Part shown: positions 396-19,767 of the stretch, piece after piece
Layout: each line of letters starts with the position of its first letter
Position numbering within the stretch: the first letter of the stretch is position 1
The notes under the pieces: model-generated
Database searches by the model: none
Told to the model about the DNA's origin: nothing
Seen by the model: the letters and a program-made list of their open reading frames with translations, nothing else
Program-made: the position numbers and the translations under genes
Assembly (NCBI GenBank): GCA_964464905.1
Contig: CAYXHC010000001.1
Span: forward strand, 1,097-65,096
Source: an uncultured Lachnospiraceae bacterium
GTDB taxonomy: Bacteria > Bacillota > Clostridia > Oscillospirales > CAG-272
Direction of reading: 5' to 3'
DNA: 64,000 nt

Positions 396-1835
396 TCAGC
401 CGAAAATATCGAGCTTTTCCATGCTCTTTTCAATCGCCTTGTTTATAGACTTCTGAAGCTTGGCATAGAGGGTGGCGGGACTCGCATTTACGTCCTGAAG
501 GGTGGTGTATGCGGAACCCCAGTTGAAGAATACGCCAAGGTCGTAGCTTCTCTGCTCAAATATGATATCAAGCATTGCGCCGGATTCCTCGTCACGGGAG
601 TAGCGGGACTTGAGCTGACCCTCGTAGTAGGCGGGAATGAGATAGTCGGATCCCTTTGCAGCCATGGCTTCAACGATGATGCTGGTGGTGTAGGGATCTT
701 CGCAGTTAAGACCAACGGTCATAACGCAGGAGGAAACGGCTATGTAGGAATAGTAACGCTTCTGATCGGAGTTCTGCTTGGGGAAGGGGACGATGCCGAA
801 ATCTTCTTCGTTTTCGCGGAAGCCGCGGGCGTGAGCGATGACCTCGGTCGCAAAGAGGGTTCTTGCTTCCTGGAAAATGAGACGCGCCTGATTGGAGTTA
901 TCGTAGCATTCGGTGTCACCCATTATGAGAACGAGCTTTTCAAAGGCGTTTACGAAAGCCTCGGAACCCCAGGCAATGGCGGGAACGCCGTCTTTGTCGA
1001 TCTCAACTAACTTGAGACCTGCAGACTGCCAGAATGCGGGATAGTTTTCGCTGTGACCTGCAATGCCGAAAATATCGGTGCCGCTGTCGGCAACTCCGTT
1101 TGCGTTAACGTCTTCTTTGACTATGTTGCCCATTTCGTACATCTTATCCCAGGTCCACTCGTTGTTGTTGACGAGGTCGTAGGGACTTTCGAGACCTGCA
1201 TTTTCGATCATAGACTTGGTGAAGTATACGCACCAGATACATTCCTTGTCGGAAAGGGCGATATCGCCGGAAATCATATAGTGTAATCCGCCGAGAGCGA
1301 GCTGATCGGTGCAGTCGCTGTTCCACCAGGCTTTGTCGAGGTTGATATAGTCGAATTCTTCGATGGGATAGCAGTATCCGGAACCTACCGCTGTTGCGGA
1401 GTAGCTCATATTGTTAAAGCAGATGTTGTAGTCCTGAGTGTTTGCATCAACGTCGGTCTTGAAAAGATTGTAAACAGACTCGCCCATTGACGCGGTGGCT
1501 TCGCTGATCTCGATGCCGAGGAGATCTTCAACCGCACGGTTGCGCTCGTAGACTGCCTGTTCGTAAGCATCGTCTGAGGGCTCGTCAAAGTCGCAGAGAG
1601 TGTAATTGTATGTAAGTATGTCGGGGGTGAGTATGGTGAATGCCATACCGTCAAACTTTTCGTTGGGGATCTCAAGAACGTCCTTTTGAGTATCGGCGTT
1701 TTCAGTCTCCGTGCTGCCGGTACCGGTGTCTGCAACGTCGCCCGTGCCCTCGCCGCCGTCAGCGGGATCGGAGCAGGCTGCCAGCGGAACCGTGATCATA
1801 AGAAGCACGAGCAGTAAACTTAATAATTTTCGCAT
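396..1835 (-). CDS. Extracellular solute-binding lipoprotein, LplA/LipO-like (SBP paralog 1)
   Basis: ORF track gives 396..1847. I moved the start to ATG 1835 (MRKLLSLLLVLLMITVPLAAC) because GGAGG sits 5 nt upstream. The lipobox is L-A-A-C, followed by a Gly/Thr/Asp-rich linker. The protein is about 60-65% identical by eye to the next two paralogs, e.g. WWNSDCT.QLALGG.HYM.SGDIALSDKECIW and YYEGQLKSRYSRDEESG.MLDIIF. Confidence 0.85.
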   Translation of the reverse strand: MRKLLSLLLVLLMITVPLAACSDPADGGEGTGDVADTGTGSTETENADTQKDVLEIPNEKFDGMAFTILTPDILTYNYTLCDFDEPSDDAYEQAVYERNRAVEDLLGIEISEATASMGESVYNLFKTDVDANTQDYNICFNNMSYSATAVGSGYCYPIEEFDYINLDKAWWNSDCTDQLALGGLHYMISGDIALSDKECIWCVYFTKSMIENAGLESPYDLVNNNEWTWDKMYEMGNIVKEDVNANGVADSGTDIFGIAGHSENYPAFWQSAGLKLVEIDKDGVPAIAWGSEAFVNAFEKLVLIMGDTECYDNSNQARLIFQEARTLFATEVIAHARGFRENEEDFGIVPFPKQNSDQKRYYSYIAVSSCVMTVGLNCEDPYTTSIIVEAMAAKGSDYLIPAYYEGQLKSRYSRDEESGAMLDIIFEQRSYDLGVFFNWGSAYTTLQDVNASPATLYAKLQKSINKAIEKSMEKLDIFG

Positions 1836-1873
1836 AATTACCTCCAATGTTTTTGTTATAACTGTACAATTTA

Positions 1874-1879
1874 ATGATA
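1874..1879 (-). promoter_or_regulatory. Probable -10 box (TATCAT) of the SBP1 promoter, inside a 15-nt block shared with the SBP2 promoter
   Basis: Plus-strand TTAATGATACAGCAT (1871-1885) is identical to 3575-3589 upstream of SBP2. On the gene strand it reads ATGCTGTATCATTAA. No good -35 hexamer is present. TGTGAA repeats lie just upstream (see findings). Confidence 0.5.
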
Positions 1880-2040
1880 CAGCATCACAGGCGGCAATAT
1901 GTGAACGAAAATAAAACTAATCATCAATATTGTGAAAATAATATTTCAAATATGTGAATAGAATTTCAAAAAGATTGAAAATCAGCGGAAGGAAGCCTTT
2001 GTCGCGTTTTGACGATCGGGAGGGGGATGACTTTTTGGGA

Positions 2041-2069
2041 AAACAAAAACCGGCAGAGAGATCTGCCGG
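2041..2069 (-). terminator. Rho-independent terminator after SBP paralog 2
   Basis: Stem CCGGCAGA (2050-2057) / TCTGCCGG (2062-2069) with loop GAGA. On the minus strand it is followed by TTTTTGTTT (plus-strand A-run 2041-2049). Confidence 0.8.
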
Positions 2070-2081
2070 TTTTATTATGTT

Positions 2082-3560
2082 GATCTTAGAGACCGAGCTT
2101 TTCGAACGCCTTTTCGATCTGCTTGTTGGTCTGCTTTTCTACCTTAGCGTAGAGGGAAGCGGGGTTAACGTCTACGCTCTTGAGGGAGGAGTACGCGGAG
2201 CCCCAGTTGAAGAATACGCCGAGGTCGTAGCAACGGTTAGCAAAGATGATGTCGAGCATTTCGCCGGACTCTTCGTCACGGGAGTAGCGGGACTTGAGCT
2301 GACCTTCGTAGTAAGCGGGCATAAGGATCTCGGAACCCTTGGCAGCCATAGCTTCGAGAATGATGCTGGTCTGGTAGGGGCTTGCGCAGTCCTTACCAAC
2401 GGTCATAACGCAGGAGTTAACTGCGATATAGGAGTAGTAGGTGTCAATGTCAGAGCTGTACTTGGGATAAGGAAGGATACCGAAGTCGTATTCGTTTTCA
2501 CGGTAGTCGCGAACGAAAGCGATAACCTCGGTTCCGAAGAGGCACTTACCTTCCTTAAGGCAGGTGGTGATGTGCGCAACAGCGTCGGAAACGGTGGAGG
2601 TGGTGGTCCAGTTTACGTTTTCGGTGTCGCCCATGAGCTCAACGATATCTTCGAATACGTTAACGAACTGTTCGGAGTTCCAGTTGATCTTGGGTGTGCC
2701 TGCTTCGTCAAGGGAAGCGAGGGTGAGACCTGCGGATTCCCAGCTTGCAGGGAAGTTTTCGCCGTGTGTAACGAAACCGTAGATGTCGCCGGAGTCGAGA
2801 GCGCCGGAGCCGTTTTCGTCAGAGGTAGCGGTCATAGCCATTTCGTGCATCTTGTCCCAGGTCCATTCGTTGTTCTTAACGAGCTGGTAGGGATCTTCGA
2901 GGCCCTTGTACTTTTCAATGAGTTCCTTGATGAAGTAAACAGCCCAGATACATTCCTTGTCGGAAAGGGCGATGTCGCCGGAGAGCATGTAGTGCATGCC
3001 GCCGAGAGCGAGCTGCTCGGTGCAGTCGCTGTTCCACCAGGACTTGTCGAGATCGATGTAATCGAACAGGTCAAGCTCGTAGCAGAGGCCGGCGCCGGTA
3101 GCGGTGCAGGAGTACTCCATCTGGTTGAAGGTTACGCCGTAGTCGCCGGTGTTAGCTTCAACGGCAGTCTTGAAGAGGGTGTAAACTTCGGAGCCGATGC
3201 CGGAGGAAACCTCGGTGATGGTGATGTTGAGGAGGTTCTCGACAGCGTCGTTACGCAGATAAAGAGCGTTTTCGTACATGTCTTCGGAAGGCTCGTCAAA
3301 ATCGGTTGCGGTGTAGTTATACGTAACTACGGTAGGAGTGAGAACTACGAATTCATAGCCGTCGAAGTCCTCTGCGGGGATCTCGAGAACGTCAGAAACG
3401 TCACCCGTGCCGGAAGTTTCAGTGCCGGTACCGGTGTTTGCAGCGTCTCCCGTGCCCTCGCCGTCATCAGCGGGATCGGAGCAGGATGCAAGCGGTACTG
3501 CGAGCATGAGAACTACAAGCAGTAAGCTTAAGAATTTTTTCATAAATACCTCCAAGTATT
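2082..3560. repeat. Direct repeat copy 1 (1479 bp) of a tandem duplication with period 1695 bp
   Basis: 2082..3560 matches 3777..5255. The translated ORFs in several frames on both strands are letter-identical in the ORF track: 485 aa, 75 aa and 80 aa on the minus strand, and 72 aa plus the 317-aa tail on the plus strand. The boundary bases differ (2081 t vs 3776 c; 3561 c vs 5256 t). Confidence 0.9.
2086..3543 (-). CDS. Extracellular solute-binding lipoprotein, LplA/LipO-like (SBP paralog 2, duplicate copy 1)
   Basis: ORF track gives 2086..3720. I placed the start at ATG 3543 (MKKFLSLLLVVLMLAVPLASC) with GGAGG 5 nt upstream. The lipobox is L-A-S-C. The 485-aa product is identical to that of 3781..5238. 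Confidence 0.85.
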   Translation of the reverse strand: MKKFLSLLLVVLMLAVPLASCSDPADDGEGTGDAANTGTGTETSGTGDVSDVLEIPAEDFDGYEFVVLTPTVVTYNYTATDFDEPSEDMYENALYLRNDAVENLLNITITEVSSGIGSEVYTLFKTAVEANTGDYGVTFNQMEYSCTATGAGLCYELDLFDYIDLDKSWWNSDCTEQLALGGMHYMLSGDIALSDKECIWAVYFIKELIEKYKGLEDPYQLVKNNEWTWDKMHEMAMTATSDENGSGALDSGDIYGFVTHGENFPASWESAGLTLASLDEAGTPKINWNSEQFVNVFEDIVELMGDTENVNWTTTSTVSDAVAHITTCLKEGKCLFGTEVIAFVRDYRENEYDFGILPYPKYSSDIDTYYSYIAVNSCVMTVGKDCASPYQTSIILEAMAAKGSEILMPAYYEGQLKSRYSRDEESGEMLDIIFANRCYDLGVFFNWGSAYSSLKSVDVNPASLYAKVEKQTNKQIEKAFEKLGL

Positions 3561-3577
3561 CTATGTTACTACTGTTA

Positions 3578-3583
3578 ATGATA
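3578..3583 (-). promoter_or_regulatory. Probable -10 box (TATCAT) of the SBP2 promoter
   Basis: Same 15-nt block as at 1871-1885. It lies about 35 nt upstream of ATG 3543. Three TGAA-type repeats with an 11-bp period start 23 nt further upstream, at 3606, 3617 and 3628. Confidence 0.5.
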
Positions 3584-3702
3584 CAGCATATTGCGTCTGT
3601 AATGATGAATAATGTGTGAACGTCGTGTGAATTCATGACGAAGGGGGCGGGAGGTAGTCTTTTTTTGCGATGAAGTGCCTGAATGTATTTTCGCAATAGA
3701 AA

Positions 3703-3742
3703 CAAAAAAAGGAAATACACACGCCGATGCGTGTGTATTTCC
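3703..3742 (-). terminator. Rho-independent terminator after SBP paralog 3
   Basis: 14-bp stem GGAAATACACACGC (3711-3724) / GCGTGTGTATTTCC (3729-3742) with loop CGAT. On the minus strand it is followed by TTTTTTTGTTT. Confidence 0.85.
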
Positions 3743-3776
3743 CTTTATCGGAATAAAAATCTAAACCGTTAGAATC

Positions 3777-5255
3777 GATCTTAGAGACCGAGCTTTTCGA
3801 ACGCCTTTTCGATCTGCTTGTTGGTCTGCTTTTCTACCTTAGCGTAGAGGGAAGCGGGGTTAACGTCTACGCTCTTGAGGGAGGAGTACGCGGAGCCCCA
3901 GTTGAAGAATACGCCGAGGTCGTAGCAACGGTTAGCAAAGATGATGTCGAGCATTTCGCCGGACTCTTCGTCACGGGAGTAGCGGGACTTGAGCTGACCT
4001 TCGTAGTAAGCGGGCATAAGGATCTCGGAACCCTTGGCAGCCATAGCTTCGAGAATGATGCTGGTCTGGTAGGGGCTTGCGCAGTCCTTACCAACGGTCA
4101 TAACGCAGGAGTTAACTGCGATATAGGAGTAGTAGGTGTCAATGTCAGAGCTGTACTTGGGATAAGGAAGGATACCGAAGTCGTATTCGTTTTCACGGTA
4201 GTCGCGAACGAAAGCGATAACCTCGGTTCCGAAGAGGCACTTACCTTCCTTAAGGCAGGTGGTGATGTGCGCAACAGCGTCGGAAACGGTGGAGGTGGTG
4301 GTCCAGTTTACGTTTTCGGTGTCGCCCATGAGCTCAACGATATCTTCGAATACGTTAACGAACTGTTCGGAGTTCCAGTTGATCTTGGGTGTGCCTGCTT
4401 CGTCAAGGGAAGCGAGGGTGAGACCTGCGGATTCCCAGCTTGCAGGGAAGTTTTCGCCGTGTGTAACGAAACCGTAGATGTCGCCGGAGTCGAGAGCGCC
4501 GGAGCCGTTTTCGTCAGAGGTAGCGGTCATAGCCATTTCGTGCATCTTGTCCCAGGTCCATTCGTTGTTCTTAACGAGCTGGTAGGGATCTTCGAGGCCC
4601 TTGTACTTTTCAATGAGTTCCTTGATGAAGTAAACAGCCCAGATACATTCCTTGTCGGAAAGGGCGATGTCGCCGGAGAGCATGTAGTGCATGCCGCCGA
4701 GAGCGAGCTGCTCGGTGCAGTCGCTGTTCCACCAGGACTTGTCGAGATCGATGTAATCGAACAGGTCAAGCTCGTAGCAGAGGCCGGCGCCGGTAGCGGT
4801 GCAGGAGTACTCCATCTGGTTGAAGGTTACGCCGTAGTCGCCGGTGTTAGCTTCAACGGCAGTCTTGAAGAGGGTGTAAACTTCGGAGCCGATGCCGGAG
4901 GAAACCTCGGTGATGGTGATGTTGAGGAGGTTCTCGACAGCGTCGTTACGCAGATAAAGAGCGTTTTCGTACATGTCTTCGGAAGGCTCGTCAAAATCGG
5001 TTGCGGTGTAGTTATACGTAACTACGGTAGGAGTGAGAACTACGAATTCATAGCCGTCGAAGTCCTCTGCGGGGATCTCGAGAACGTCAGAAACGTCACC
5101 CGTGCCGGAAGTTTCAGTGCCGGTACCGGTGTTTGCAGCGTCTCCCGTGCCCTCGCCGTCATCAGCGGGATCGGAGCAGGATGCAAGCGGTACTGCGAGC
5201 ATGAGAACTACAAGCAGTAAGCTTAAGAATTTTTTCATAAATACCTCCAAGTATT
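3777..5255. repeat. Direct repeat copy 2 (1479 bp)
   Basis: See copy 1. The repeat covers the stop codon, the whole CDS, the RBS and 17 nt of 5' UTR. It does not include the promoter or the terminator. Confidence 0.9.
3781..5238 (-). CDS. Extracellular solute-binding lipoprotein, LplA/LipO-like (SBP paralog 3, duplicate copy 2)
   Basis: ORF track gives 3781..5274. I placed the start at ATG 5238 with the same GGAGGTATTT-ATG context as copy 1. The protein is identical to 2086..3543. Confidence 0.85.
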   Translation of the reverse strand: MKKFLSLLLVVLMLAVPLASCSDPADDGEGTGDAANTGTGTETSGTGDVSDVLEIPAEDFDGYEFVVLTPTVVTYNYTATDFDEPSEDMYENALYLRNDAVENLLNITITEVSSGIGSEVYTLFKTAVEANTGDYGVTFNQMEYSCTATGAGLCYELDLFDYIDLDKSWWNSDCTEQLALGGMHYMLSGDIALSDKECIWAVYFIKELIEKYKGLEDPYQLVKNNEWTWDKMHEMAMTATSDENGSGALDSGDIYGFVTHGENFPASWESAGLTLASLDEAGTPKINWNSEQFVNVFEDIVELMGDTENVNWTTTSTVSDAVAHITTCLKEGKCLFGTEVIAFVRDYRENEYDFGILPYPKYSSDIDTYYSYIAVNSCVMTVGKDCASPYQTSIILEAMAAKGSEILMPAYYEGQLKSRYSRDEESGEMLDIIFANRCYDLGVFFNWGSAYSSLKSVDVNPASLYAKVEKQTNKQIEKAFEKLGL

Positions 5256-5496
5256 TATCGTGATAGATGTACAAAATAATTTTACAACTAAACCGTTTAC
5301 AAAAGGTTAATAAATTGTGAACGAAAGATTAACATAGTGAGATAATGAATAAAAAAACAAACTAATTGAGAAAAAATCCTCTGCCAATGGTATAACTTGA
5401 CGATTATCTTAAACAAATCTTAAGGTTTTGGGTTATTTTATCTTAATAATGTTTGTGGTACAATTGAAGCGTGAAATGAAAAAGGAGACGATATCT

Positions 5497-6201
5497 ATGT
5501 ACAACATACTCGTTTGCGATGACGAAAAGGATATAGTGTCGGCGCTTGAAATATATCTTTCGGCTGAGGGATACCGCGTTTATAAGGCGTATGACGGCGA
5601 GGAGGCGATAAGCACCGTGAGAACGGAAGAGATACATCTCGTGCTTCTGGACGTTATGATGCCGATGACGGACGGGCTCCGCGCTATGAGGCGCCTGCGT
5701 GAGTTTTCAAACGTGCCCGTTTTGCTGCTGACGGCGAAAAGCGAGGAAACGGACAAAATAGCGGGACTGAACCTGGGCGCCGACGATTACATAACGAAGC
5801 CTTTCAATCCGGTTGAGGTTGCGGCGCGGGTGAAGGCGAATCTGCGTCGTTATATGCAGCTTGGCGGCGGTGACGTGAAGGCTCTTGAAAGCGTTTACAG
5901 CGTTTCCGGCATCGTGATGGACGATAAAGCTCACACCGTTACGAGAGACGGCGAGCCTATATCGCTGACTCCCACCGAATACGATATACTGAAACTGTTT
6001 CTGATGCATCCCGACGAGCTGATGACGCCGAAGCGCATTTACGGCGCGGTCTGGGGCGGCAATTTCATCGGTGGCGAGGGGACCGTTGCCGTTCACATAC
6101 GTCATCTTCGCGAAAAACTTGAATACGATCCGTCCTCACCGAGATATCTTCGCGTTGTGTGGGGGCAGGGGTATAAGCTGTCAAGCATCGTTGGTGTTTG
6201 A
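5497..6201 (+). CDS. OmpR/PhoB-family response regulator (receiver plus winged-helix domain)
   Basis: ORF track gives 5428..6201. I placed the start at ATG 5497 (MYNILVCDDEKDIV) with AAGGAG 9 nt upstream. Receiver motifs are DD, LLDVMMP.DG and LLLTAK. The C-terminal end reads ...HIRHLREKLE...VWGQGYKL, typical of OmpR-type DNA-binding domains. Confidence 0.9.
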   Translation: MYNILVCDDEKDIVSALEIYLSAEGYRVYKAYDGEEAISTVRTEEIHLVLLDVMMPMTDGLRAMRRLREFSNVPVLLLTAKSEETDKIAGLNLGADDYITKPFNPVEVAARVKANLRRYMQLGGGDVKALESVYSVSGIVMDDKAHTVTRDGEPISLTPTEYDILKLFLMHPDELMTPKRIYGAVWGGNFIGGEGTVAVHIRHLREKLEYDPSSPRYLRVVWGQGYKLSSIVGV

Positions 6202-6233
6202 TATAAAAACATAAATATTAAGGAAAGGAACCG

Positions 6234-8156
6234 ATGAAAATGAAAAAACTTCAATGCTACAGATGGGCGCGAGTTGCGGCAGTGCTGCTGGCGGCTGTGA
6301 CGCTTACTGTTTTCTTTGGATCTGTCTTGGGGATCGTCGCTGCAGCAGATCTGGGACTCTATACACAAAGCTATGACAACGCAAAGGAAATGGCAGTGAC
6401 GGACGTGCTCTACGGCAATGCCTACCTTATAGTGAACGCCTACCGTGACAGCTATGTGCTTGGGTATTACTCACATTCACAGGCAAAAGCGCAGATGCAG
6501 GAAGCCGTGTTCCGCAAAAATCTTGATTTTGAGCTTTGGCGCGGGGAAGATATGCTCTATTCGTCTTATTCCGGTGTCGTTCCCGAGTCTGACGCTGTGT
6601 ATGAGCTTGGCGTGGCAGAGTACGGCGAGGGTGAATACAGCGTGCGTTTTTATCTTCTCAAAAACACGAAATGTTACGACGAGATCTATTTTATGGAGCA
6701 TTGGCTCGACAAGCTTTACGAAATGCGGTTCGCGCTCATCGTGATCTGCGTTTTGTCGTTGATCCTGTCGTTTTTGACGTGGCTTTTCGCCGTTTCTGCG
6801 GCGGGCAAGCGCCTCACCCTTGACGGATACGCAAGCGGCGTGCTGACGATGCTTGACCGCGTCCCTCTTGATCTGCTGCTGGCTTTTGCTGCAGCGGCTG
6901 TGTTTGTCGAGGCTCTCATATACGACTTCAACCACGACATAGGAGACATATTTACCGCCGTGCTTCTCGGCGTGTACGTTTTCGTTGATTCCGTATTCGT
7001 CACTCTTTTGTCGATGACCGTGAAGGTGCGTGTCGTAACGAAGACGGCACTTGATAACAATATCACGGCGATGCTTCTCAGACTGGGGTATAAGCTTGTA
7101 GTCCGGATATGGGAATGTATAAAGTCGGGAGCGAGGCTGATGGTGAAAATCGTTCGGTGCGTTCCCATGTTCTGGCGGACGCTGACTGCAACGATCGCCA
7201 TGACGGTGATAAGCTTCGTTATTACGTGTCTGGCTGCCGGAAACAGCGACGCGGCAATATTCCTTTTCGTGCTGTTTTGGCTTGCGGTAACGGTGTGGCT
7301 CTGCTTCTCCGCCTGGAATATGACGATACTCCGTCGGGGCGCCAAGCGTATCGCCGAAGGTGACCTTTCCTATCGCATCGACACGAAATATCTTCTTTTT
7401 GATTTTAAGCGTCACGCCGATGACCTTAACAGTATCAAAAACGGTATGGCAACGGCGGTGGAGGAACGGATGCGCGGCGAGATGTTCAAAACCGAGCTTA
7501 TCACCAACGTGTCCCACGATATAAAGACGCCTCTGACTTCAATAATAAATTACGTGGATCTTTTGAAAAAATGCGGAGTGGAAAATGAAGAAGCAAGAGG
7601 GTATATCGAGGTGCTCGACCGCCAATCCGCGAGACTCAAAAAGCTGACGGAGGATCTTGTAACTGCCTCGAAGGCGTCGTCGGGCGTCGTTAAAGCGGAG
7701 CTTAAGCCCTGCGATCTCGGGATCTTCGTTGAACAGACGGCGGGCGAATATGAAGAAAAGCTTGCGAAGGCGGATCTTAAGCTCGTGGTGTCAACGCCCG
7801 ACTATCCCGTTACCGTGGAGGCTGACGGCAAGCTTCTCTGGCGCATCTTCGATAACCTTATGAACAACGCTTTGAAATATTCGCTTCCGGGGTCGCGGGT
7901 GTACCTGTCTCTTAAAGAAAATGAAAGAGAAGGAACGGTGACGGTGACGAATGTGTCCCGCGAGCCGATAACGCGCGACGGGGGAGAGCTTACGGAAAGG
8001 TTCGTTCGCGGCGACGATTCCCGACATACGGAAGGCTCGGGACTCGGACTCTCTATCGCCAAAAGCTTCACGGAGCTTCAGAGAGGTACTTTTGACGTAA
8101 CGGCGGACTATGATCTGTTCCGCGTGACGGTGAAGTTTCCTTTGCCGGAGGAGTGA
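6234..8156 (+). CDS. Multi-pass membrane sensor histidine kinase (HisKA plus HATPase_c)
   Basis: The H-box is ELITNVSHDIKTPLTSI. The N box is NLMNNALKYS and the G boxes are GSGLGLSIAKS. TM1 is followed by an extracytoplasmic stretch of about 130 aa. Several further hydrophobic helices precede a HAMP-like linker. The gene starts 33 nt downstream of the response regulator stop. Confidence 0.9.
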   Translation: MKMKKLQCYRWARVAAVLLAAVTLTVFFGSVLGIVAAADLGLYTQSYDNAKEMAVTDVLYGNAYLIVNAYRDSYVLGYYSHSQAKAQMQEAVFRKNLDFELWRGEDMLYSSYSGVVPESDAVYELGVAEYGEGEYSVRFYLLKNTKCYDEIYFMEHWLDKLYEMRFALIVICVLSLILSFLTWLFAVSAAGKRLTLDGYASGVLTMLDRVPLDLLLAFAAAAVFVEALIYDFNHDIGDIFTAVLLGVYVFVDSVFVTLLSMTVKVRVVTKTALDNNITAMLLRLGYKLVVRIWECIKSGARLMVKIVRCVPMFWRTLTATIAMTVISFVITCLAAGNSDAAIFLFVLFWLAVTVWLCFSAWNMTILRRGAKRIAEGDLSYRIDTKYLLFDFKRHADDLNSIKNGMATAVEERMRGEMFKTELITNVSHDIKTPLTSIINYVDLLKKCGVENEEARGYIEVLDRQSARLKKLTEDLVTASKASSGVVKAELKPCDLGIFVEQTAGEYEEKLAKADLKLVVSTPDYPVTVEADGKLLWRIFDNLMNNALKYSLPGSRVYLSLKENEREGTVTVTNVSREPITRDGGELTERFVRGDDSRHTEGSGLGLSIAKSFTELQRGTFDVTADYDLFRVTVKFPLPEE

Positions 8157-8231: not shown

Positions 8232-8261
8232 TTGACACAATGCAATTATATGTGTTATCAT
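8232..8261 (+). promoter_or_regulatory. SigA-type promoter for the first surface-protein gene
   Basis: TTGACA (8232-8237), 18 nt spacer, TATCAT (8256-8261), with TGTG immediately upstream of the -10. The conserved leader element starts about 7 nt after the -10 box. Confidence 0.65.
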
Positions 8262-8267
8262 ATAGAC

Positions 8268-8329
8268 AATAGTAGCCGGAGGGCGCCCTCCGTTATGATA
8301 GGTTCGCAGAACCTATCATAATAAACCTT
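8268..8329 (+). promoter_or_regulatory. Conserved 62-nt two-hairpin leader element, copy A
   Basis: 58 of 62 nt are identical to 12123-12184. It contains a 16-nt perfect palindrome, CGGAGGGCGCCCTCCG (8277-8292). It also contains a 13-bp perfect-stem hairpin, TTATGATAGGTTC-GCA-GAACCTATCATAA (8293-8321). No U-tract follows the hairpin. Confidence 0.8.
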
Positions 8330-8379
8330 TATGGCGGGAAGTTCCGACGGCACGAAAATTTATTTTGGAGGAACTTTTC

Positions 8380-9237
8380 ATGAAAAAGATTCTTGCTCTC
8401 GTAATGGTAGTTGCAATGCTCGCATGCTTCGCTACCGCTACATCCGCTGCAGAAATGAAGTTTGTTGAAGAAGCAAGCTTTGATTTCAGCACCACCGAAG
8501 GCCTCAAGGGCTATACCGCAAGCTGGCCCGGTAACGACCTCATGTGCAACGCTGCTGCTGCAGAGGTTGCTGAAGGCGTTATCGTTGACGGCGCATTCGT
8601 TGCAGGCACCATGGGCTTCGTTGTAGACGAAGTATTTGATGCTACCAACGGTATCAAGATCAAGATGGACATTACCATCGACAAGACCAAGGTTGGCGGT
8701 TCTCCCTGGTTCCAGGGCGTTGCTTCCTTCTTTAATGCAGACGGCAAGTCCGCTGAATTCCTCGCTCTCGCTGGCGAAGAGTTCGAGCACTCCTACGATG
8801 CATACTACCTCAACTACAAGGGTTCCGGTACTCACTTCCAGGCACATACCGGTGACCTCGGCGAAGGCGCTACCGGCAACAATGTTGTTTGGGGCGGCGA
8901 CGTTGCTGAAGACCTCGTTACCGACGATGCTCCCACCTGGAGCGGCACTGTAGAATTCATCGTTGTTCCCGCTGAAACCGGCGCTACCGTTACCATCCTT
9001 GTTGACGGCGTTGACATCGGTCTCCCCAACAACCCCGAATTCGCAAACTTCCTCTCTGACGAAATGCTCGTTACCATCGGTGCTACTCACTACGGCGACT
9101 ATGCACTCGCTTCCACCATTGATAACGTTGTTATCTACACCATGCAGGAAGAAGCTACTCAGACCGGTTTCGCTACTGTTGCTCTCGCAATCGTTGCAAT
9201 CGGTTCCGGCGCTTACATCGTATCCAAGAAGCACTAA
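8380..9237 (+). CDS. Secreted ConA/LamG-like (DUF1080-like) beta-sandwich protein with a C-terminal QTG-TM-KKH anchor
   Basis: ORF track gives 8365..9237. I placed the start at ATG 8380 with GGAGGA 8 nt upstream. The signal peptide is MKKILALVMVVAMLACFATATSA/AE. The C-terminus is EEATQTGFATVALAIVAIGSGAYIVSKKH (motif, hydrophobic helix, basic tail). The fold call is by eye from the beta-rich pattern ending ...STIDNVVIY. Confidence 0.7.
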   Translation: MKKILALVMVVAMLACFATATSAAEMKFVEEASFDFSTTEGLKGYTASWPGNDLMCNAAAAEVAEGVIVDGAFVAGTMGFVVDEVFDATNGIKIKMDITIDKTKVGGSPWFQGVASFFNADGKSAEFLALAGEEFEHSYDAYYLNYKGSGTHFQAHTGDLGEGATGNNVVWGGDVAEDLVTDDAPTWSGTVEFIVVPAETGATVTILVDGVDIGLPNNPEFANFLSDEMLVTIGATHYGDYALASTIDNVVIYTMQEEATQTGFATVALAIVAIGSGAYIVSKKH

Positions 9238-9253
9238 TTATTGGATCAAAAAA

Positions 9254-9278
9254 GGCTCCCTAAAGGGGGCCTTTTTTT
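9254..9278 (+). terminator. Rho-independent terminator
   Basis: Stem GGCTCCC (9254-9260), loop TAAA, stem GGGGGCC (9265-9271), followed by TTTTTTT (9272-9278). It is nearly the same hairpin as at 10190-10213. Confidence 0.85.
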
Positions 9279-9307
9279 AGATGGGCATCAAAATTGTAAA
9301 TAAAGTG

Positions 9308-9336
9308 TTGACAAAGTTTTTATGCGGTGTTATTAT
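9308..9336 (+). promoter_or_regulatory. SigA-type promoter for the second surface-protein gene
   Basis: TTGACA (9308-9313), 17 nt spacer, TATTAT (9331-9336). Confidence 0.7.
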
Positions 9337-9390
9337 GAGATATAAAGTTTTGATGCTTCATCAAAAACAAAAAAACATGGAGGAACTTTT

Positions 9391-10170
9391 ATGAAAAAGA
9401 TTCTTGCTCTCGTAATGGTAGTTGCTATGCTCGCATGCTTCGCTACCGTTGCAAACGCTGCTGCTCCCGAAGGACAGATTGCGTACTACACCTTTGACGC
9501 TGCTGACGAAGCAGGCCTCACCGTAAACGGCGACAACGCTACCTACGCTGACGGCGCTGTTACTCTCGGCGACGCTACTTACCTCACTGCGGACATCGAT
9601 CTTTCCGGTGTTACCGCTATGACCGTTGCTCTCAAGGTTAAGATCACCGATACTGATGCTAACTGGGGCTTTGAGATCACCTCTGAAGAGGCTCACTCCT
9701 GGCCGGCTGAGCATTACATCGGCTGCCTCCTCAACGGCAGTGCTGTGATCGAACGCTACAACAACACCGACGGTCGTCCCAATTCCGCTTCCGCTACTAT
9801 CGCGGTTGACGAATGGGTTGAGCTCGTAGTTGTTCTTCCTGAAGACGGCTCCATCGTTCTTTATGCTGACGGCGCAGAAGTTGCTAACGTTCCTCAGACC
9901 GAAGGCTTCGACCTCGCTATCGCAAACTGCATCGGCGAAACTCCCGTATTCCAGATTGGTAAGGCTAACTGGGGCGAAGGCGAATACGCTGCAGGCACCT
10001 CCATCGACACTTTTGCAGTTTACAACACTGCTCTCTCTGCTGACGAAGTAGCTACCGCTCTCGAAGCTCCCGCAGCAGACGAAGAAGCTGCTCAGACCGG
10101 TTTCGCTACCGTTGCTCTCGCAATCGTTGCAATCGGCTCCGGCGCTTACATCGTGTCTAAGAAGCACTAA
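9391..10170 (+). CDS. Secreted LamG-domain protein with a C-terminal QTG-TM-KKH anchor
   Basis: GGAGGA lies 7 nt upstream of the start. The signal peptide is MKKILALVMVVAMLACFATVANA/AA. The LamG-like hallmark is ...IGKANWGEGEYAAGTSIDTFAVYNTALSADEV, resembling the common ...D.V.IYNRALSA.EI ending. The C-terminus is EEAAQTGFATVALAIVAIGSGAYIVSKKH. Confidence 0.75.
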   Translation: MKKILALVMVVAMLACFATVANAAAPEGQIAYYTFDAADEAGLTVNGDNATYADGAVTLGDATYLTADIDLSGVTAMTVALKVKITDTDANWGFEITSEEAHSWPAEHYIGCLLNGSAVIERYNNTDGRPNSASATIAVDEWVELVVVLPEDGSIVLYADGAEVANVPQTEGFDLAIANCIGETPVFQIGKANWGEGEYAAGTSIDTFAVYNTALSADEVATALEAPAADEEAAQTGFATVALAIVAIGSGAYIVSKKH

Positions 10171-10189
10171 TTCCTGAATGAGCGAAAAA

Positions 10190-10213
10190 GGCTCCCGAAA
10201 GGGAGCCTTTTTT
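10190..10213 (+). terminator. Rho-independent terminator
   Basis: Stem GGCTCCC (10190-10196), loop GAAA, stem GGGAGCC (10201-10207), followed by TTTTTT. Confidence 0.85.
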
Positions 10214-10257
10214 GCGTTAAAATGCTGCGTTTGATTCAGTTAATGTTAATAAACGTA

Positions 10258-10286
10258 TTGCACCGGAGCGGGTTATATGGTATAAT
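10258..10286 (+). promoter_or_regulatory. SigA-type promoter for the lectin-like lipoprotein gene
   Basis: TTGCAC (10258-10263), 17 nt spacer, TATAAT (10281-10286). Confidence 0.7.
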
Positions 10287-10325
10287 AATCTTGCAATATC
10301 CTATATAATATAAGGAGAATTATTC

Positions 10326-11675
10326 ATGAAAAAGATACTTGCTCTTTTACTTGCCGTTATGATGCTGGCAGCTCTCGTTGCCTGCGACGATGGCAGTCTG
10401 CCTCCCGTTGACGGAGAAAGCGATAGCGAAGGCACGGGAACGGGCGAAGGCACCGAAACTGAGGCAGAATCCGAAACCGAAGAAGAAGACGAGGACTATG
10501 TCCCTGACTTTGAAGCGAAATACGGCGGCTGCGTCGGTGTGGGCGTTGAGTCCGGCTCCGCTTACTTCGATAACCTTAAGGTTGTGTCTAAGCAGACCGA
10601 TAAGAAGGAGCTCTACTACGATGAGCTCGAGGGCGAGCTTCCCGTTCTCACTTACGTTACGGGTGCTGAAGCCGATTGGGCTGTTGCTGTTGACCCCACC
10701 GAGGATGAAGATGAGGATGATCCCAACCACGCTCTCGGATACACGGGCTCTTCCGCTTCTATGGTGACCTTCGGTTCCTCCAACTGGAATTACTATCAGT
10801 ATTCCATGAAGGTGTATCCCGTTGACGACACCACAGTTATCGATCTTTATTTCTGCGTTACCGATGCTGATAACTATTTCGTCGTTTCCGTTGGCGGAAA
10901 CGATGGCGATTCCCTTTGCTATCAGGTAGTCGGCGGCGAGAAGACGGCTGTTGCGCCCAGTGTTTACGCTCCCGTTGAGATCGGTGAATGGACCTCCGTC
11001 GGCATTACCGTTGAACGTGAGACCATCGATATCTACATCGGCGGCACCAAGCGCTTCTCTCTCTTTAATGATGAATTCGAATACAGCATGACCATCGCAA
11101 ACAGAGCTACCGTTAACGCTCCTTACTGCGCTTCCTGGGAAACTCCCGGCTCCATTAACGACGGTATGTATCCTGACGCTACCTACGCTTCCGTTTCCAA
11201 CGGTACCGCTTACGGCTCCTGGAGCATGGCAGATATATCCGAGACCATTTCTTACGAATGGGACGAGGCTGTGACTGTTGACGGTATCGGTCTCTTCTTC
11301 TGGCAGGACAAGGAAACCCGTGAATACTGGCTCGAAAACGGCGGTATCCACTCTGCTTCCTACTATACCATCCAGTATCTCGATGAAAACGGCGACTACG
11401 TAGACGTTGAAAATGCTGTTGGTCTTGAGGTTCTCGATGACGTTATGAACCAGACCTTCTTCGATGCTGTTACCACCACGTCAATTCAGGTAACTCTCTA
11501 TAAGTTCACCGAAGAGGAGGATGCTACCTACAGATTCTCCGAATATAAGGAGTATGAAGCAAACGGCGGCGATGTCGATGCTGAAGATGCACCTACGGAT
11601 CCTTCCATCCGCGGACTCGGACTCTTTGAGTTTGAAGTGTACGCAGCAGGCACAGTTGAAAGACCCGAGGAATGA
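10326..11675 (+). CDS. Lipoprotein with an acidic linker, a ConA/LamG-like domain and a C-terminal discoidin/galactose-binding-like domain
   Basis: The signal and lipobox are MKKILALLLAVMMLAALVAC. A Glu/Asp/Thr-rich linker follows. FDNLKV and ...IDIYIGG... strands resemble DUF1080/LamG. The C-terminal half (ASWETPGSINDG...GSWS...ISYEWDEAVTVDGIGLFFWQD...) looks like an F5/8-type-C carbohydrate-binding module. Domain calls are by eye. Confidence 0.6.
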   Translation: MKKILALLLAVMMLAALVACDDGSLPPVDGESDSEGTGTGEGTETEAESETEEEDEDYVPDFEAKYGGCVGVGVESGSAYFDNLKVVSKQTDKKELYYDELEGELPVLTYVTGAEADWAVAVDPTEDEDEDDPNHALGYTGSSASMVTFGSSNWNYYQYSMKVYPVDDTTVIDLYFCVTDADNYFVVSVGGNDGDSLCYQVVGGEKTAVAPSVYAPVEIGEWTSVGITVERETIDIYIGGTKRFSLFNDEFEYSMTIANRATVNAPYCASWETPGSINDGMYPDATYASVSNGTAYGSWSMADISETISYEWDEAVTVDGIGLFFWQDKETREYWLENGGIHSASYYTIQYLDENGDYVDVENAVGLEVLDDVMNQTFFDAVTTTSIQVTLYKFTEEEDATYRFSEYKEYEANGGDVDAEDAPTDPSIRGLGLFEFEVYAAGTVERPEE

Positions 11676-11828: not shown

Positions 11829-12122
11829 ATTGTTCGATAAAATGAACAAAGTATGGCGAAAAAGTCCGACTTGTGTTATGAAATATGGTGAAAAAGATGA
11901 AAAAGTGCTGTGGGGACTTGAAATATTACACCGATGTATGATAAAATAAACAAACATTAAAAATCAAAATGTATAGGTGTTTGTATTTTGTTTTTTATTG
12001 GGAAGCGATTCCTTGACGACGACGGCGTTGCCGCGTCGTTCAATGGCGCATTGTGATGCCCGGTCAGTGTATGCCGGACCGGTGCGCAACTGTCTTTCCT
12101 TGTGTATGCGTTATTATATAAA

Positions 12123-12184
12123 AATAGCAGCCGGAGGGCGCCCTCCGTTATGATAGGTTCTGCGAACCTATCATAATAAACCTT
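12123..12184 (+). promoter_or_regulatory. Conserved 62-nt two-hairpin leader element, copy B
   Basis: It has the same palindrome (12132-12147) and the same 13-bp stem (12148-12160 / 12164-12176) as copy A. The 3-nt loop is TGC here, the reverse complement of GCA in copy A. One further substitution is at 12128. Confidence 0.8.
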
Positions 12185-12222
12185 ATCATTAAGCCGGAAC
12201 GGGGGAAGGGCAGATCATTTCG

Positions 12223-12270
12223 TTAACGGAGAGCTAAGCTCTGTTAAATTATATTTTTTTATATTTTTTT
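12223..12270 (+). terminator. Terminator-like hairpin plus T-rich tract inside the importer leader (possible attenuator)
   Basis: TTAAC-GG-AGAGC (12223-12234), loop TAA, GCTCT-GTTAA (12238-12247), then ATTATATTTTTTTATATTTTTTT. It lies immediately before the RBS GGGAGGA (12271-12277). The stem is short and imperfect. Confidence 0.4.
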
Positions 12271-12285
12271 GGGAGGAACAAAAAA

Positions 12286-17607: not shown

Positions 17608-19767
17608 ATGGATAAGATTCTTGAAGTTAAAGGACTTAAAATATCGTTCCGTACAAGCAGCGGAACGCTCAAGGCGGTTCGTGATATCTCCTTCGACCTT
17701 GAGCGCGGTAAGACTCTTGCCATAGTCGGTGAATCCGGCTCCGGCAAGTCTGTTACATCAAAAGCAATTCTCGGTATTCTTGCCGGCAACTCTATTATTG
17801 AGGGTGGCGAGATACTTTACGACGGTAAGGATCTTCTTAAGATCACCGAGGATGACATGTATAAGATCCGCGGAGATAAGATCTCTATGATCTTCCAGGA
17901 TCCGCTTTCGTCTCTGAATCCCATCGTTAAGATCGGTAAACAGATCACGGAAGCAATGCTCCTTAAAAATAAGGCAAACCGCAAGGAAGCGAGAGCTGAA
18001 TTTAACAGCATCCTCGCTCTCCTTCGCGAGAATATGATTGCAGCGTCCGGTGCTGAAAATGCGTCGAAGATCGAGGAGATGATCTCAACCTTCGACAAGT
18101 TCTGCATTGAGGCGACCAAGATCGAAACTGAATATAACGAAGCTTCTTCCGTTGCAGAAGAGCTTATCTCCAACATTGAAGACTTCGTCTTTATGATGGA
18201 AAAGAAGCAGAAGCTCGACGTTAAGGCGTCTCTCAAGGAATATGCAGAAAAGCTCGCAAGAGTTAAGAATCAGTTCCTTACAGTTGATCGCGACGAGGAG
18301 CTCACACGTCTCGCGGATGAAATGCTCGCTTTCAGAGCAGAGTATAAGAAGGACGCAAACGCTGAGGGCATGACTGAAAAGGTCATTTCCGTTCTTCGTG
18401 AAGTGCAGGCGGTCCTCCGGCAGGTGCTTGCAACCGAGCGTCCCAACTTCTTCCGCATCGGCTACTATAAGTACTGCGGAAACGACATTTCTCTTAACGG
18501 TAGGACCGTAGAAGAGCTCAACGAGATCACGCTTTCGTATCTCGACGAGAATTATATGAGAGAGTTCATCTCCGTTGAGACTAAGGGCGTTGAACATTCG
18601 TATAATGTTGCCCTCGAAAAGAAGAAGGAGGTTCTCGGAAAGCTTTCTGAAGCAAAGGAATTCTATCGCGGTGATTTCAAACAGAAGGCGGCAGAAGCTC
18701 TCTGCAAGACTCTTTCCGCTGAAGTTGAAGCTTCCATTGACAAGCTGGAGCTGCTCAAGGATAGTACTGCATACACGTTCAGAAGCAGTCTCTCCGGCGC
18801 CGTTGCGCAGTACTTCCGTTTCAAGAAGCAGAATCCTCGCGAGGAAGCACGCTTCGAACGTCAGACTAAAAAGCGCGATGCTCTTATCGCTCGCGGCAAG
18901 ACTGTTGACTGGAAGGTAGTGCCCAAGGTCGTCTACGATCTTGACGAGCTCAAGGCGAACATCGTTTCCATCATTGAGCATCTTGAAGAGCGCTACAATG
19001 CATACATTGCAGGTGCCGATTCTATAGATTTCAAGACACGCAGCTCCGATATCGTAGATCACCTTAAGGAAAAGGCTTCTCAGGTGGTTTACCGTGTAAC
19101 TGCAAGTATGGCAAAGGAACAGGCTATCAAGCTTATGGACGAGGTTGGTATCCACGAGCCCCGTACCCGTTACTATCAGTATCCCTTCGAGTTTTCCGGC
19201 GGTATGCGTCAGAGAATCGTTATCGCTATTGCACTTGCGGCAAACCCCGACATTCTCATCTGCGATGAACCTACCACTGCTCTCGACGTTACCATTCAGG
19301 CACAGATACTTGAGCTTATCAATAAGCTCAAGAGAGAAAGAAACCTTTCCGTTATCTTCATCACACACGACCTTGGTGTCGTTGCGAACATGGCTGACGA
19401 CATCGCAGTTATGTACGCAGGTAAGATCGTTGAATACGGTACGGCTGACGATATTTTCTATGATCCTCGTCATCCTTACACCTGGGCGCTCCTTTCTTCT
19501 ATGCCCGATCTCGATACCAATGAAAAACTCGACGCTATCCCCGGCACACCTCCCAATATGATCTATCCCCCTGTGGGCGATGCTTTTGCAGACCGTAACA
19601 AGTACGCGCTTAAGATAGATTTCGAGGCTCAGCCTCCTATGTTTGAGGTGTCTCCCACTCATAAGGCTGCTACCTGGCTCCTGCATCCCGATGCACCAAA
19701 GGTTGAGGTGCCGAAGATCATTACGAGCCGCATCGAAAGAATGAAAAAGGCAGGAGGTAATAACTGA
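17608..19767 (+). CDS. ABC transporter ATP-binding protein, OppD-like, 719 aa with an insertion of about 360 aa in the helical subdomain
   Basis: Walker A is GESGSGKS (aa 41-48). The Q-loop is MIFQDP (aa 94-99). The signature FSGGMRQR appears only at aa 529-536. Walker B is ILICDEPTTALD. The C-terminal Opp-type extension reads PRHPYTWALLSSMP. Confidence 0.9.
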   Translation: MDKILEVKGLKISFRTSSGTLKAVRDISFDLERGKTLAIVGESGSGKSVTSKAILGILAGNSIIEGGEILYDGKDLLKITEDDMYKIRGDKISMIFQDPLSSLNPIVKIGKQITEAMLLKNKANRKEARAEFNSILALLRENMIAASGAENASKIEEMISTFDKFCIEATKIETEYNEASSVAEELISNIEDFVFMMEKKQKLDVKASLKEYAEKLARVKNQFLTVDRDEELTRLADEMLAFRAEYKKDANAEGMTEKVISVLREVQAVLRQVLATERPNFFRIGYYKYCGNDISLNGRTVEELNEITLSYLDENYMREFISVETKGVEHSYNVALEKKKEVLGKLSEAKEFYRGDFKQKAAEALCKTLSAEVEASIDKLELLKDSTAYTFRSSLSGAVAQYFRFKKQNPREEARFERQTKKRDALIARGKTVDWKVVPKVVYDLDELKANIVSIIEHLEERYNAYIAGADSIDFKTRSSDIVDHLKEKASQVVYRVTASMAKEQAIKLMDEVGIHEPRTRYYQYPFEFSGGMRQRIVIAIALAANPDILICDEPTTALDVTIQAQILELINKLKRERNLSVIFITHDLGVVANMADDIAVMYAGKIVEYGTADDIFYDPRHPYTWALLSSMPDLDTNEKLDAIPGTPPNMIYPPVGDAFADRNKYALKIDFEAQPPMFEVSPTHKAATWLLHPDAPKVEVPKIITSRIERMKKAGGNN

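Follow-up and report, generated by a model that had tools for sequence, protein, structure and literature searches.

Template switching between the arms of inverted repeats during replication is a documented process, which makes or maintains perfect stems and inverts the loops between them (PMC8794818, PMC8604942, PMC5941160). A candidate product of this process is described here from an uncultured Lachnospiraceae bacterium (contig CAYXHC010000001.1). The stretch of DNA analysed, which is referred to as the window, is 64,000 nucleotides (nt) long, and all positions are numbered within it. The element in question is a pair of adjacent perfect hairpins that occurs twice in the window, once in the 5' leader of a gene for a secreted lectin-like protein (copy A) and once in the leader of a neighbouring operon for an Opp-like ATP-binding cassette (ABC) transporter (copy B). 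As in other template-switched inverted repeats (quasipalindrome correction), the arms are Watson-Crick paired, the sole multi-nucleotide difference between the copies is an exact loop inversion, and the 5' arm of the second hairpin resembles the native leader sequence of a relative. The present case differs in that the process is inferred from its footprint.

A second comparison concerns the 5'-proximal stabilising stem-loops of the ermC/aprE type, which are known from Firmicute mRNAs. Like these, copy A is stable and lies near a predicted 5' end, and it has no ligand-binding architecture or required loop sequence; moreover, a paralogue leader at this locus has a shorter hairpin with similar arms near its own predicted 5' end. 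The differences are that 8–9 unpaired nt precede the first stem of copy A, as counted from the predicted start, and that copy B lies in the interior of a leader some 330 nt long.

The repeated unit and its two hairpins

Copy A (8268-8329) and copy B (12123-12184) are identical at 58 of 62 nt on the + strand. This reproduces the coordinates and the identity given in an earlier description of the locus, which was made by a model from the letters and is referred to as the sequence-only reading. The copies point the same way at a distance of 3.9 kb, each of them within a 5' leader. A 31-nt core of the repeat occurs exactly twice in the window, against zero occurrences expected from shuffles. The repeated unit is longer than the 62-nt core, at about 81–84 nt, as the homology runs some 20–25 nt further upstream. 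Its parts, together with the promoter that it overlaps at copy A, are as follows.

~8247-8329, + strand: copy A of the repeated unit, ~83 nt, comprising the -10 region, the leader start and two hairpins (core 8268-8329)
~12101-12184, + strand: second copy (B) of the unit; compared with the sister genome L006 it is an insertion of 84 nt with CCTT at each side, as delimited by the alignment with L006
8277-8292, + strand: hairpin 1 of copy A, a perfect 16-nt palindrome, CGGAGGGCGCCCTCCG, with a 6-bp stem and a GCGC loop
12132-12147, + strand: hairpin 1 of copy B, with the same sequence as that of copy A
8293-8321, + strand: hairpin 2 of copy A, a 13-bp perfect stem with the loop GCA (8306-8308)
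12148-12176, + strand: hairpin 2 of copy B, with the same arms as that of copy A and the loop TGC (12161-12163)
8232-8261, + strand: promoter P1 of the first lectin-like paralogue, TTGACA-18-TATCAT with an upstream TG, matching the consensus at 11 of 12 positions

The -10 half of P1 falls inside the repeated unit, and the 62-nt core starts 7 nt past this strong promoter's -10 box, in keeping with the few nucleotides mentioned earlier. The same promoter architecture precedes the paralogues and the orthologues of the gene.

The anatomy proposed in the sequence-only reading, that is, two hairpins made of a 16-nt palindrome and a 13-bp stem with a 3-nt loop, holds at both copies. The two hairpins abut and are unrelated in sequence, hairpin 1 being GC-rich with 6–8 bp and hairpin 2 AT-rich with 13 bp. 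In hairpin 1 of copy A, GGAGG is found at 8278-8282 and CCTCC at 8287-8291. The 19 base pairs of each copy are without exception Watson-Crick, G-U pairs being absent, and each copy folds at -26.2 kcal/mol (z = -5.6 and -5.3 for A and B, respectively; none of 200 shuffles was as stable).

The reverse complement of the 29-nt hairpin 2 of copy A is exactly hairpin 2 of copy B, and therefore three of the four differences between the copies amount to one flip of the loop. A loop inversion at the DNA level had been proposed before, and it is borne out by this identity. Template switching is recognised by perfect arms together with differences between copies that come down to an inverted spacer or loop or to homogenised arms, and hairpin 2 displays perfect arms and copies that differ by an inverted loop. 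Perfect arms with a flipped loop fit the products of replication template switching, a process read here from what it would have left behind.

Two other features that might be read into the hairpins were considered. On the + strand no T-run follows hairpin 2 in either copy (..CATAATAAACCTT follows), and a scan with a terminator consensus made no call on this strand, which agrees with the earlier statement that the element is not an intrinsic terminator. The scan returned a weak call only for hairpin 1 of copy B on the - strand; a minus-strand terminator was rejected, as no gene converges there. A mini open reading frame (ORF) of eight codons, running from ATG to TAA, coincides with hairpin 2 (MIGSQNLS*, 8295-8321 in copy A; MIGSANLS*, 12150-12176 in copy B), and GGAGG lies 12 nt upstream of it. 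A TTATGA..TCATAA palindrome around a 3-nt loop probably generates this ORF automatically. As a leader peptide it was put down to chance, and it has no counterpart in L001, a relative whose transporter binding protein is 84% identical to that of the window.

Presence in relatives and ancestry of the unit

At site B the closest comparison is offered by the sister genome L006, with identities of 95% for the binding protein (amino acids), 93.5% for its gene (nucleotides) and 87–90% for the leader flanks. L006 has the same leader minus 84 nt, which correspond exactly to the extended unit of copy B, and where the window has CCTT on both sides of the unit, L006 has a single CCTT. The unit is also absent from the more distant leaders L002, L003 and L004.

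At site A, copy A is identical in the conspecific assembly L013, with the GCA loop included, and in the conspecific L007 as far as the contig reaches, the contig ending inside the element. In L008, which belongs to the same genome as L006, the promoters of the orthologous gene are present and the hairpin block is absent. The same holds for the promoter and the block in L015, where the gene is 94.7% identical in nucleotides; L015 has the leader start of copy A, AATAATAGCCG, and diverges thereafter. The sister lineages without the hairpin block are only about 5–6% diverged at the gene level. An assembly artefact was rejected on two grounds: copy B differs from copy A in the 5' part and its flanks share no sequence of k-mer length with A, and copy A is seen in two independent assemblies (L013 and L007).

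On the sequences compared, the block is confined to one species, and it is a young repeat rather than a conserved RNA switch. The earlier designation as a conserved leader element is not supported, as sister lineages lack the hairpin block at either site and no family turned up in the collections searched.

The unit includes promoter DNA of the -10 region, which is not transcribed, and therefore the copy was made as DNA. The 5' part of the unit is a -10 region typical of the promoters of the lectin-like paralogues, as may be seen by comparing copy B (ATGCGTTATTAT) with the promoter of the second paralogue in the window, P2 (ATGCGGTGTTATTAT), with Pa of L001 (ATGCGTTATACT), and with P1 of L015 (TATATGTTATTATAT). 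Copy B's -10 box has no matching -35. The hairpin part has a likeness in the P2 leader as well.

9348-9366, + strand: 8-bp perfect hairpin TTTTGATG-CTT-CATCAAAA in the leader of the second paralogue (P2), ~5 nt from the predicted mRNA 5' end

Over the eight pairs that can be aligned between this hairpin and hairpin 2, six are identical, two are compensatory, and none is broken. At that point of its P2 leader L006 reads TTTTGAT-TGTT-ATCAAAA, and the orthologous lectin leaders of L001 read GTTATGATTTGGTTAACAGCC, which is close to the 5' arm of hairpin 2 plus its loop. The P2 leader hairpin is thus likely, judging from these alignments, a shorter relative of hairpin 2, and the simplest direction of copying would be from a promoter/leader of the A type into the transporter leader. 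It was also observed that in L006 (~745-790) a 12-nt palindrome, TCCTATATAGGA, directly precedes TTTTGAT..ATCAAAA, so that the P2 leader there has a two-hairpin 5' end of a different sequence.

The reading that we prefer, and in which our confidence and our doubt are about evenly balanced, is that the element is a DNA-level duplicate of a promoter-proximal segment with template-switched hairpins, which serves as a stabiliser at copy A and is a passenger at copy B. What is shown is the anatomy, the pattern of presence and absence, the copying as DNA and the flip of the loop, whereas the direction of copying, the origin by template switching and the role as a stabiliser are inferred. The duplicated piece is 81–84 bp long and comprises the -10 box of the lectin-like gene and the first ~60 nt of its leader with the two perfect stem-loops. 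Copy A would be native to the start of the first lectin-like paralogue's mRNA, and copy B ectopic, inserted in a predicted apical loop within the leader of the adjacent Opp-like operon. Hairpin 2 would be an enlarged version of the short 5'-proximal stem-loop that it has in common with the paralogue leader, and template switching between the inverted-repeat arms during replication would account for the perfection of the arms and for the flipped loop. In the RNA of copy A, a very stable 5' stem-loop would hinder 5'-end-dependent decay (pathways of the RNase J or RNase Y type in Firmicutes), while copy B would be a tolerated passenger.

12090-12100 pairing with 12203-12213, + strand: predicted host stem, whose apical loop contains copy B; kept on deletion of the unit in silico

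The block folds autonomously, and its deletion in silico leaves the neighbouring structures unchanged. In the predicted fold, the loop of the stem at 12090-12213 is a place that tolerates an insertion at copy B. The sequence-only reading had offered three functions for the element, namely a protein-binding operator, a 5' stabiliser and a translational switch. Of these, the 5' stabiliser is the one that the comparative data favour, through the shorter hairpin with similar arms ~5 nt from the 5' end of the P2 mRNA; the other two fare poorly, as discussed below.

Three observations weigh against this reading. First, the -10 box of P1 has its last nucleotide at 8261 and hairpin 1 its first at 8277, so that the predicted start leaves the 8–9 unpaired nt before hairpin 1 mentioned above, and this is longer than is ideal for 5'-end protection as known from work on Bacillus subtilis. 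Second, the identity between A and B is uneven, at 23 of 31 positions (74%) in the 5' part versus 54 of 55 (98%) in the hairpin part outside the loop. Such uneven divergence is not predicted by one recent copy, and suggests a different or older donor, a later gene conversion, or a constraint on the block. Third, the corresponding position of the transporter leader of L001 is taken by two neighbouring perfect hairpins of another sequence, and over 17 base pairs aligned between these and the block, 11 are identical, six are compensatory and none is broken, in an alignment made by eye and post hoc.

Alternative explanations

The last two of these observations would be accounted for if the block were old at site B. 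It would then be orthologous to the L001 pair and would have an RNA function, as a barrier to processing or decay or as a protein-binding platform; a deletion between the CCTT repeats would have removed it from L006, and a recent copying from B to A would have brought the lectin-like gene under the same post-transcriptional control. The L001 pair reads CCAAAGGG-GTAT-CCCTTTGG followed by TATGCTCCG-TATTG-CGGAGCATA, and it comes directly after a TGTCTTT that is also present in the window. In 22 kb of L001 no other two perfect hairpins lie side by side, and the L001 transporter leader was also the best foreign match of a covariance model built from copies A and B. If the block alone had been transferred recently, this would explain why the hairpin part is so much less diverged than the 5' part; the lectin-gene leaders of L001, L008 and L015 lack the block; and palindromes between short direct repeats are prone to deletion. 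However, B in its 5' part and hairpin 2 in its 5' arm resemble the promoters and leaders of lectin-like genes, which points to an origin of the A type, and the element is dispensable in L006 and L002. The likeness to L001 is also weak (13.5 bits, E = 0.28, in the covariance model), the alignment having been made by eye after the fact, and the stems are purely Watson-Crick with unconstrained loop sequences. We regard an ancestral copy B as unlikely, though as an explanation to be taken seriously.

A more far-reaching proposal may be built on the same orthology with the L001 pair. The block would be a portable, structure-selected post-transcriptional cassette that has moved between operons of one cluster linked to a two-component system; the secreted lectin-like protein and the Opp-like importer would share control at the RNA level through a common RNase barrier or RNA-binding factor, and template switching would supply the compensatory changes. 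This we hold to be improbable.

It is equally doubtful that the unit is a small non-autonomous mobile or dispersed palindromic repeat, with an outward -10 box, inserted independently at both sites. Such a repeat would resemble miniature inverted-repeat transposable elements (MITEs), repetitive extragenic palindromic (REP) sequences with their mosaic clusters (BIMEs), or palindrome-associated transposable elements (PATEs). The likenesses are a short intergenic unit of perfect palindromes with sharp ends, whose presence varies among close relatives at either site. At site B, the indel is a discrete 84 nt whose ends are the ends of the A/B homology, and it has a 4-bp direct repeat, CCTT, at its flanks. 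Moreover, the conspecific short-read contig L007 ends inside the element, and GTAG is found just 5' of hairpin 1 in copy A, as REP elements have GTAG 5' of their hairpin.

The details of the ends and the copy number are less favourable to such a repeat. Only two copies are known, and these share one orientation, a distance of a few kilobases and a location in 5' leaders within 64 kb. REP/BIME repeats, by comparison, are scattered through the intergenic DNA of a genome in many copies, frequently clustered and in either orientation. Terminal inverted repeats as in MITEs are lacking, as neither left end (TTGTGTATGCG.. or TATATGTG..) matches the right end (..CATAATAAACCTT) in reverse complement. 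A target-site duplication may be recognised in the CCTT on both sides of B, which is single in L006, but there is no CCTT to the left of A, and no empty A site with clean boundaries. PATEs, which derive from IS200/IS605, have similar subterminal hairpins at both ends that one TnpA recognises, whereas hairpins 1 and 2 are dissimilar. No transposase gene or gene resembling the REP-associated tyrosine transposases (RAYTs; IS200-like Y1 transposases) was found among the window ORFs scanned, and the 5' end of the unit looks like the native promoter DNA of the paralogue family.

Further copies were sought in several collections. The covariance model from A and B, run with filters off, found no third copy in the window. 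An exact 20-mer, CCCTCCGTTATGATAGGTTC, had no match in the GTDB species-representative genomes, and a degenerate pattern covering the window and L001 versions returned, from the species representatives, only the site of L001 itself, which was single in that genome, and three chance matches in coding regions. Hairpin 2 had one chance match in the JGI metagenomes, on an unrelated high-GC contig. No copies were found in viral contigs by pattern scan, or in plasmids and phages by BLAST.

A separate observation concerns L003, in which two intergenic regions (5987-6284 and 19174-19336) contain arrays of adjacent perfect hairpins of 8–14 bp that resemble REP/BIME clusters. Some of these hairpins are alike, such as GGGCGACC..GGTCGCCC and GGGCGATC..GATCGCCC.

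A cis-regulatory RNA switch or protein-binding leader that coordinates both operons is, in our estimation, very unlikely. It would act either by pairing of CCCUCC, as an anti-Shine-Dalgarno (anti-SD) sequence, with the Shine-Dalgarno (SD) sequence of the downstream ribosome-binding site (RBS), or through the mini-ORF as a leader peptide. The setting is suggestive, in that both copies are sense-oriented in the 5' leaders of neighbouring operons beside a two-component system, that identity in the hairpin part is 98% and extends to unpaired positions, that GGAGG and CCUCC both lie within hairpin 1, and that an eight-codon ORF with GGAGG at a short distance upstream falls exactly within hairpin 2. 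The RBS assigned earlier at copy B, GGGAGGA at 12271, is correct, and that of the gene at copy A, placed before at 8358, is in fact GGAGGA at 8367-8372. The latter is predicted to be paired in a hairpin of its own.

8336-8379, + strand: predicted hairpin in leader A that pairs GGGAAGUUCC with the RBS GGAGGAACUUUUC; outside the repeat, and formed with or without the block

Forcing the pairing of anti-SD and SD costs +7.1 kcal/mol at copy A, where the RBS is already sequestered by this separate hairpin, and so the switch proposed in the sequence-only reading is disfavoured there. At copy B the predicted cost is only +2.0 kcal/mol, but the pairing has to span 130 nt. The block, moreover, is not conserved in sister lineages, though the genes and the remaining leader are; its loop is freely invertible; and the mini-ORF, which is not conserved in L001, follows automatically from the palindrome. 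The whole window had no match in Rfam 15 at the gathering thresholds, and in E-value mode the regions around both copies gave chance-level matches only (the best 20.9 bits versus a threshold of 50 bits), none of them centred on the element. This agrees with the earlier remark that no known riboswitch or leader family could be recognised.

Among described leader classes, the dual-hairpin antiterminator targets of ANTAR proteins also have two adjacent leader hairpins upstream of a terminator-like hairpin, as is the case at copy B. The element differs in its loops, GCGC and GCA/TGC, which are of 3–4 nt and unconserved, and in that the terminator-like hairpin lies 47 nt downstream with no overlap. 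ANTAR targets, as Ramesh et al. are said to have described in 2012, have hexanucleotide loops with conserved A1 and G4, and a second hairpin that overlaps the terminator.

Finally, that the two palindromes are double-stranded DNA operators of a dimeric repressor, which would stop RNA polymerase just downstream of P1 and be a roadblock within the leader of the transporter, is highly improbable: two perfect dyads (16 bp; 13-3-13) identical at both sites, lying ~+10 to +54 from the predicted start at copy A with the perfect Watson-Crick symmetry that is a property of DNA, have to be set against the lack of an adjacent candidate regulator (the neighbouring response regulator is of the OmpR type, and such regulators bind direct repeats), the unusual length of a 29-bp perfect dyad, the absence of the sites in sister lineages with the same genes, and an L001 counterpart that changes six of 17 aligned pairs while pairing is kept, which a conserved repressor would not tolerate.

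Neighbouring genes, leaders and meaning

The window is chromosomal DNA of a Clostridia bacterium, the nearest relatives in the databases being labelled Oscillospiraceae or "Eubacteriales", with the genes rimM, trmD, HPr and mraZ further along. The features around the two copies are the following.

5428-6201: OmpR-type response regulator
6234-8156: histidine kinase; copy A comes next
8380-11675: three tandem paralogous genes for secreted ConA/Laminin_G_3-like (lectin-like) proteins, each with its own promoter and terminator
11918-11947, + strand: promoter of the Opp-like ABC operon, TTGAAA-18-TAAAAT with TG, conserved in L001, L002 and L006
12223-12270, + strand: hairpin GTTAACGGAGAGC-TAA-GCTCTGTTAA followed by T-runs, directly before the RBS of the binding protein, conserved in L001, L002 and L006
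12286-21023: Opp-like ABC transporter operon, with a binding protein of 820 amino acids, after the leader that holds copy B

The transporter leader of ~330 nt contains copy B, which lies downstream of the promoter at 11918-11947, so that the earlier placement of this copy within a long leader was right. The hairpin at 12223-12270 has counterparts in L001 (9921-9960), L002 (~958-985) and L006 (3655-3700); its sequence is kept where the binding proteins are 74–95% identical, in a leader that otherwise varies. This hairpin may be the real attenuator or regulatory site of the Opp-like operon. Further upstream in the same leader, a segment of ~100 nt (11996-12100) is only 59% identical to L006, versus 87–90% in the flanks. 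This segment is hypervariable yet structured, the window and L006 versions being rich in different GC hairpins.

The signal peptides and the C-terminal membrane-anchor tails of the lectin-like paralogues (8380-11675) are near-identical to each other. The family is tiny in public data, with only 10 homologues at E ≤ 1e-10. In L008 (2990-3060), the histidine-kinase ORF ends in or adjoins the C-terminal tail of a lectin-like paralogue together with terminator sequence, the outcome of either genuine recombination or chimeric assembly at the paralogue repeats. On the - strand of the window, three further tandem paralogous genes (396-5274) of ~1.7 kb each encode 483, 544 and 497 amino acids with a weak match to SBP_bac_8, and their repeat blocks are 75–100% identical.

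The case calls for caution, as a structured leader element that occurs in two near-identical copies in one genome does not have to belong to a regulatory RNA family; comparison with sister genomes reveals a young DNA-level duplicate of promoter-proximal sequence. It offers a clean, small example of promoter/leader fragments transplanted between neighbouring operons, and of perfect hairpins with flipped loops as the footprint of template switching, in a lineage of gut or rumen Clostridia. Should the reading of the block as a structure-selected cassette be true, leader stem-loops would be exchangeable modules that rewire post-transcriptional control between operons.

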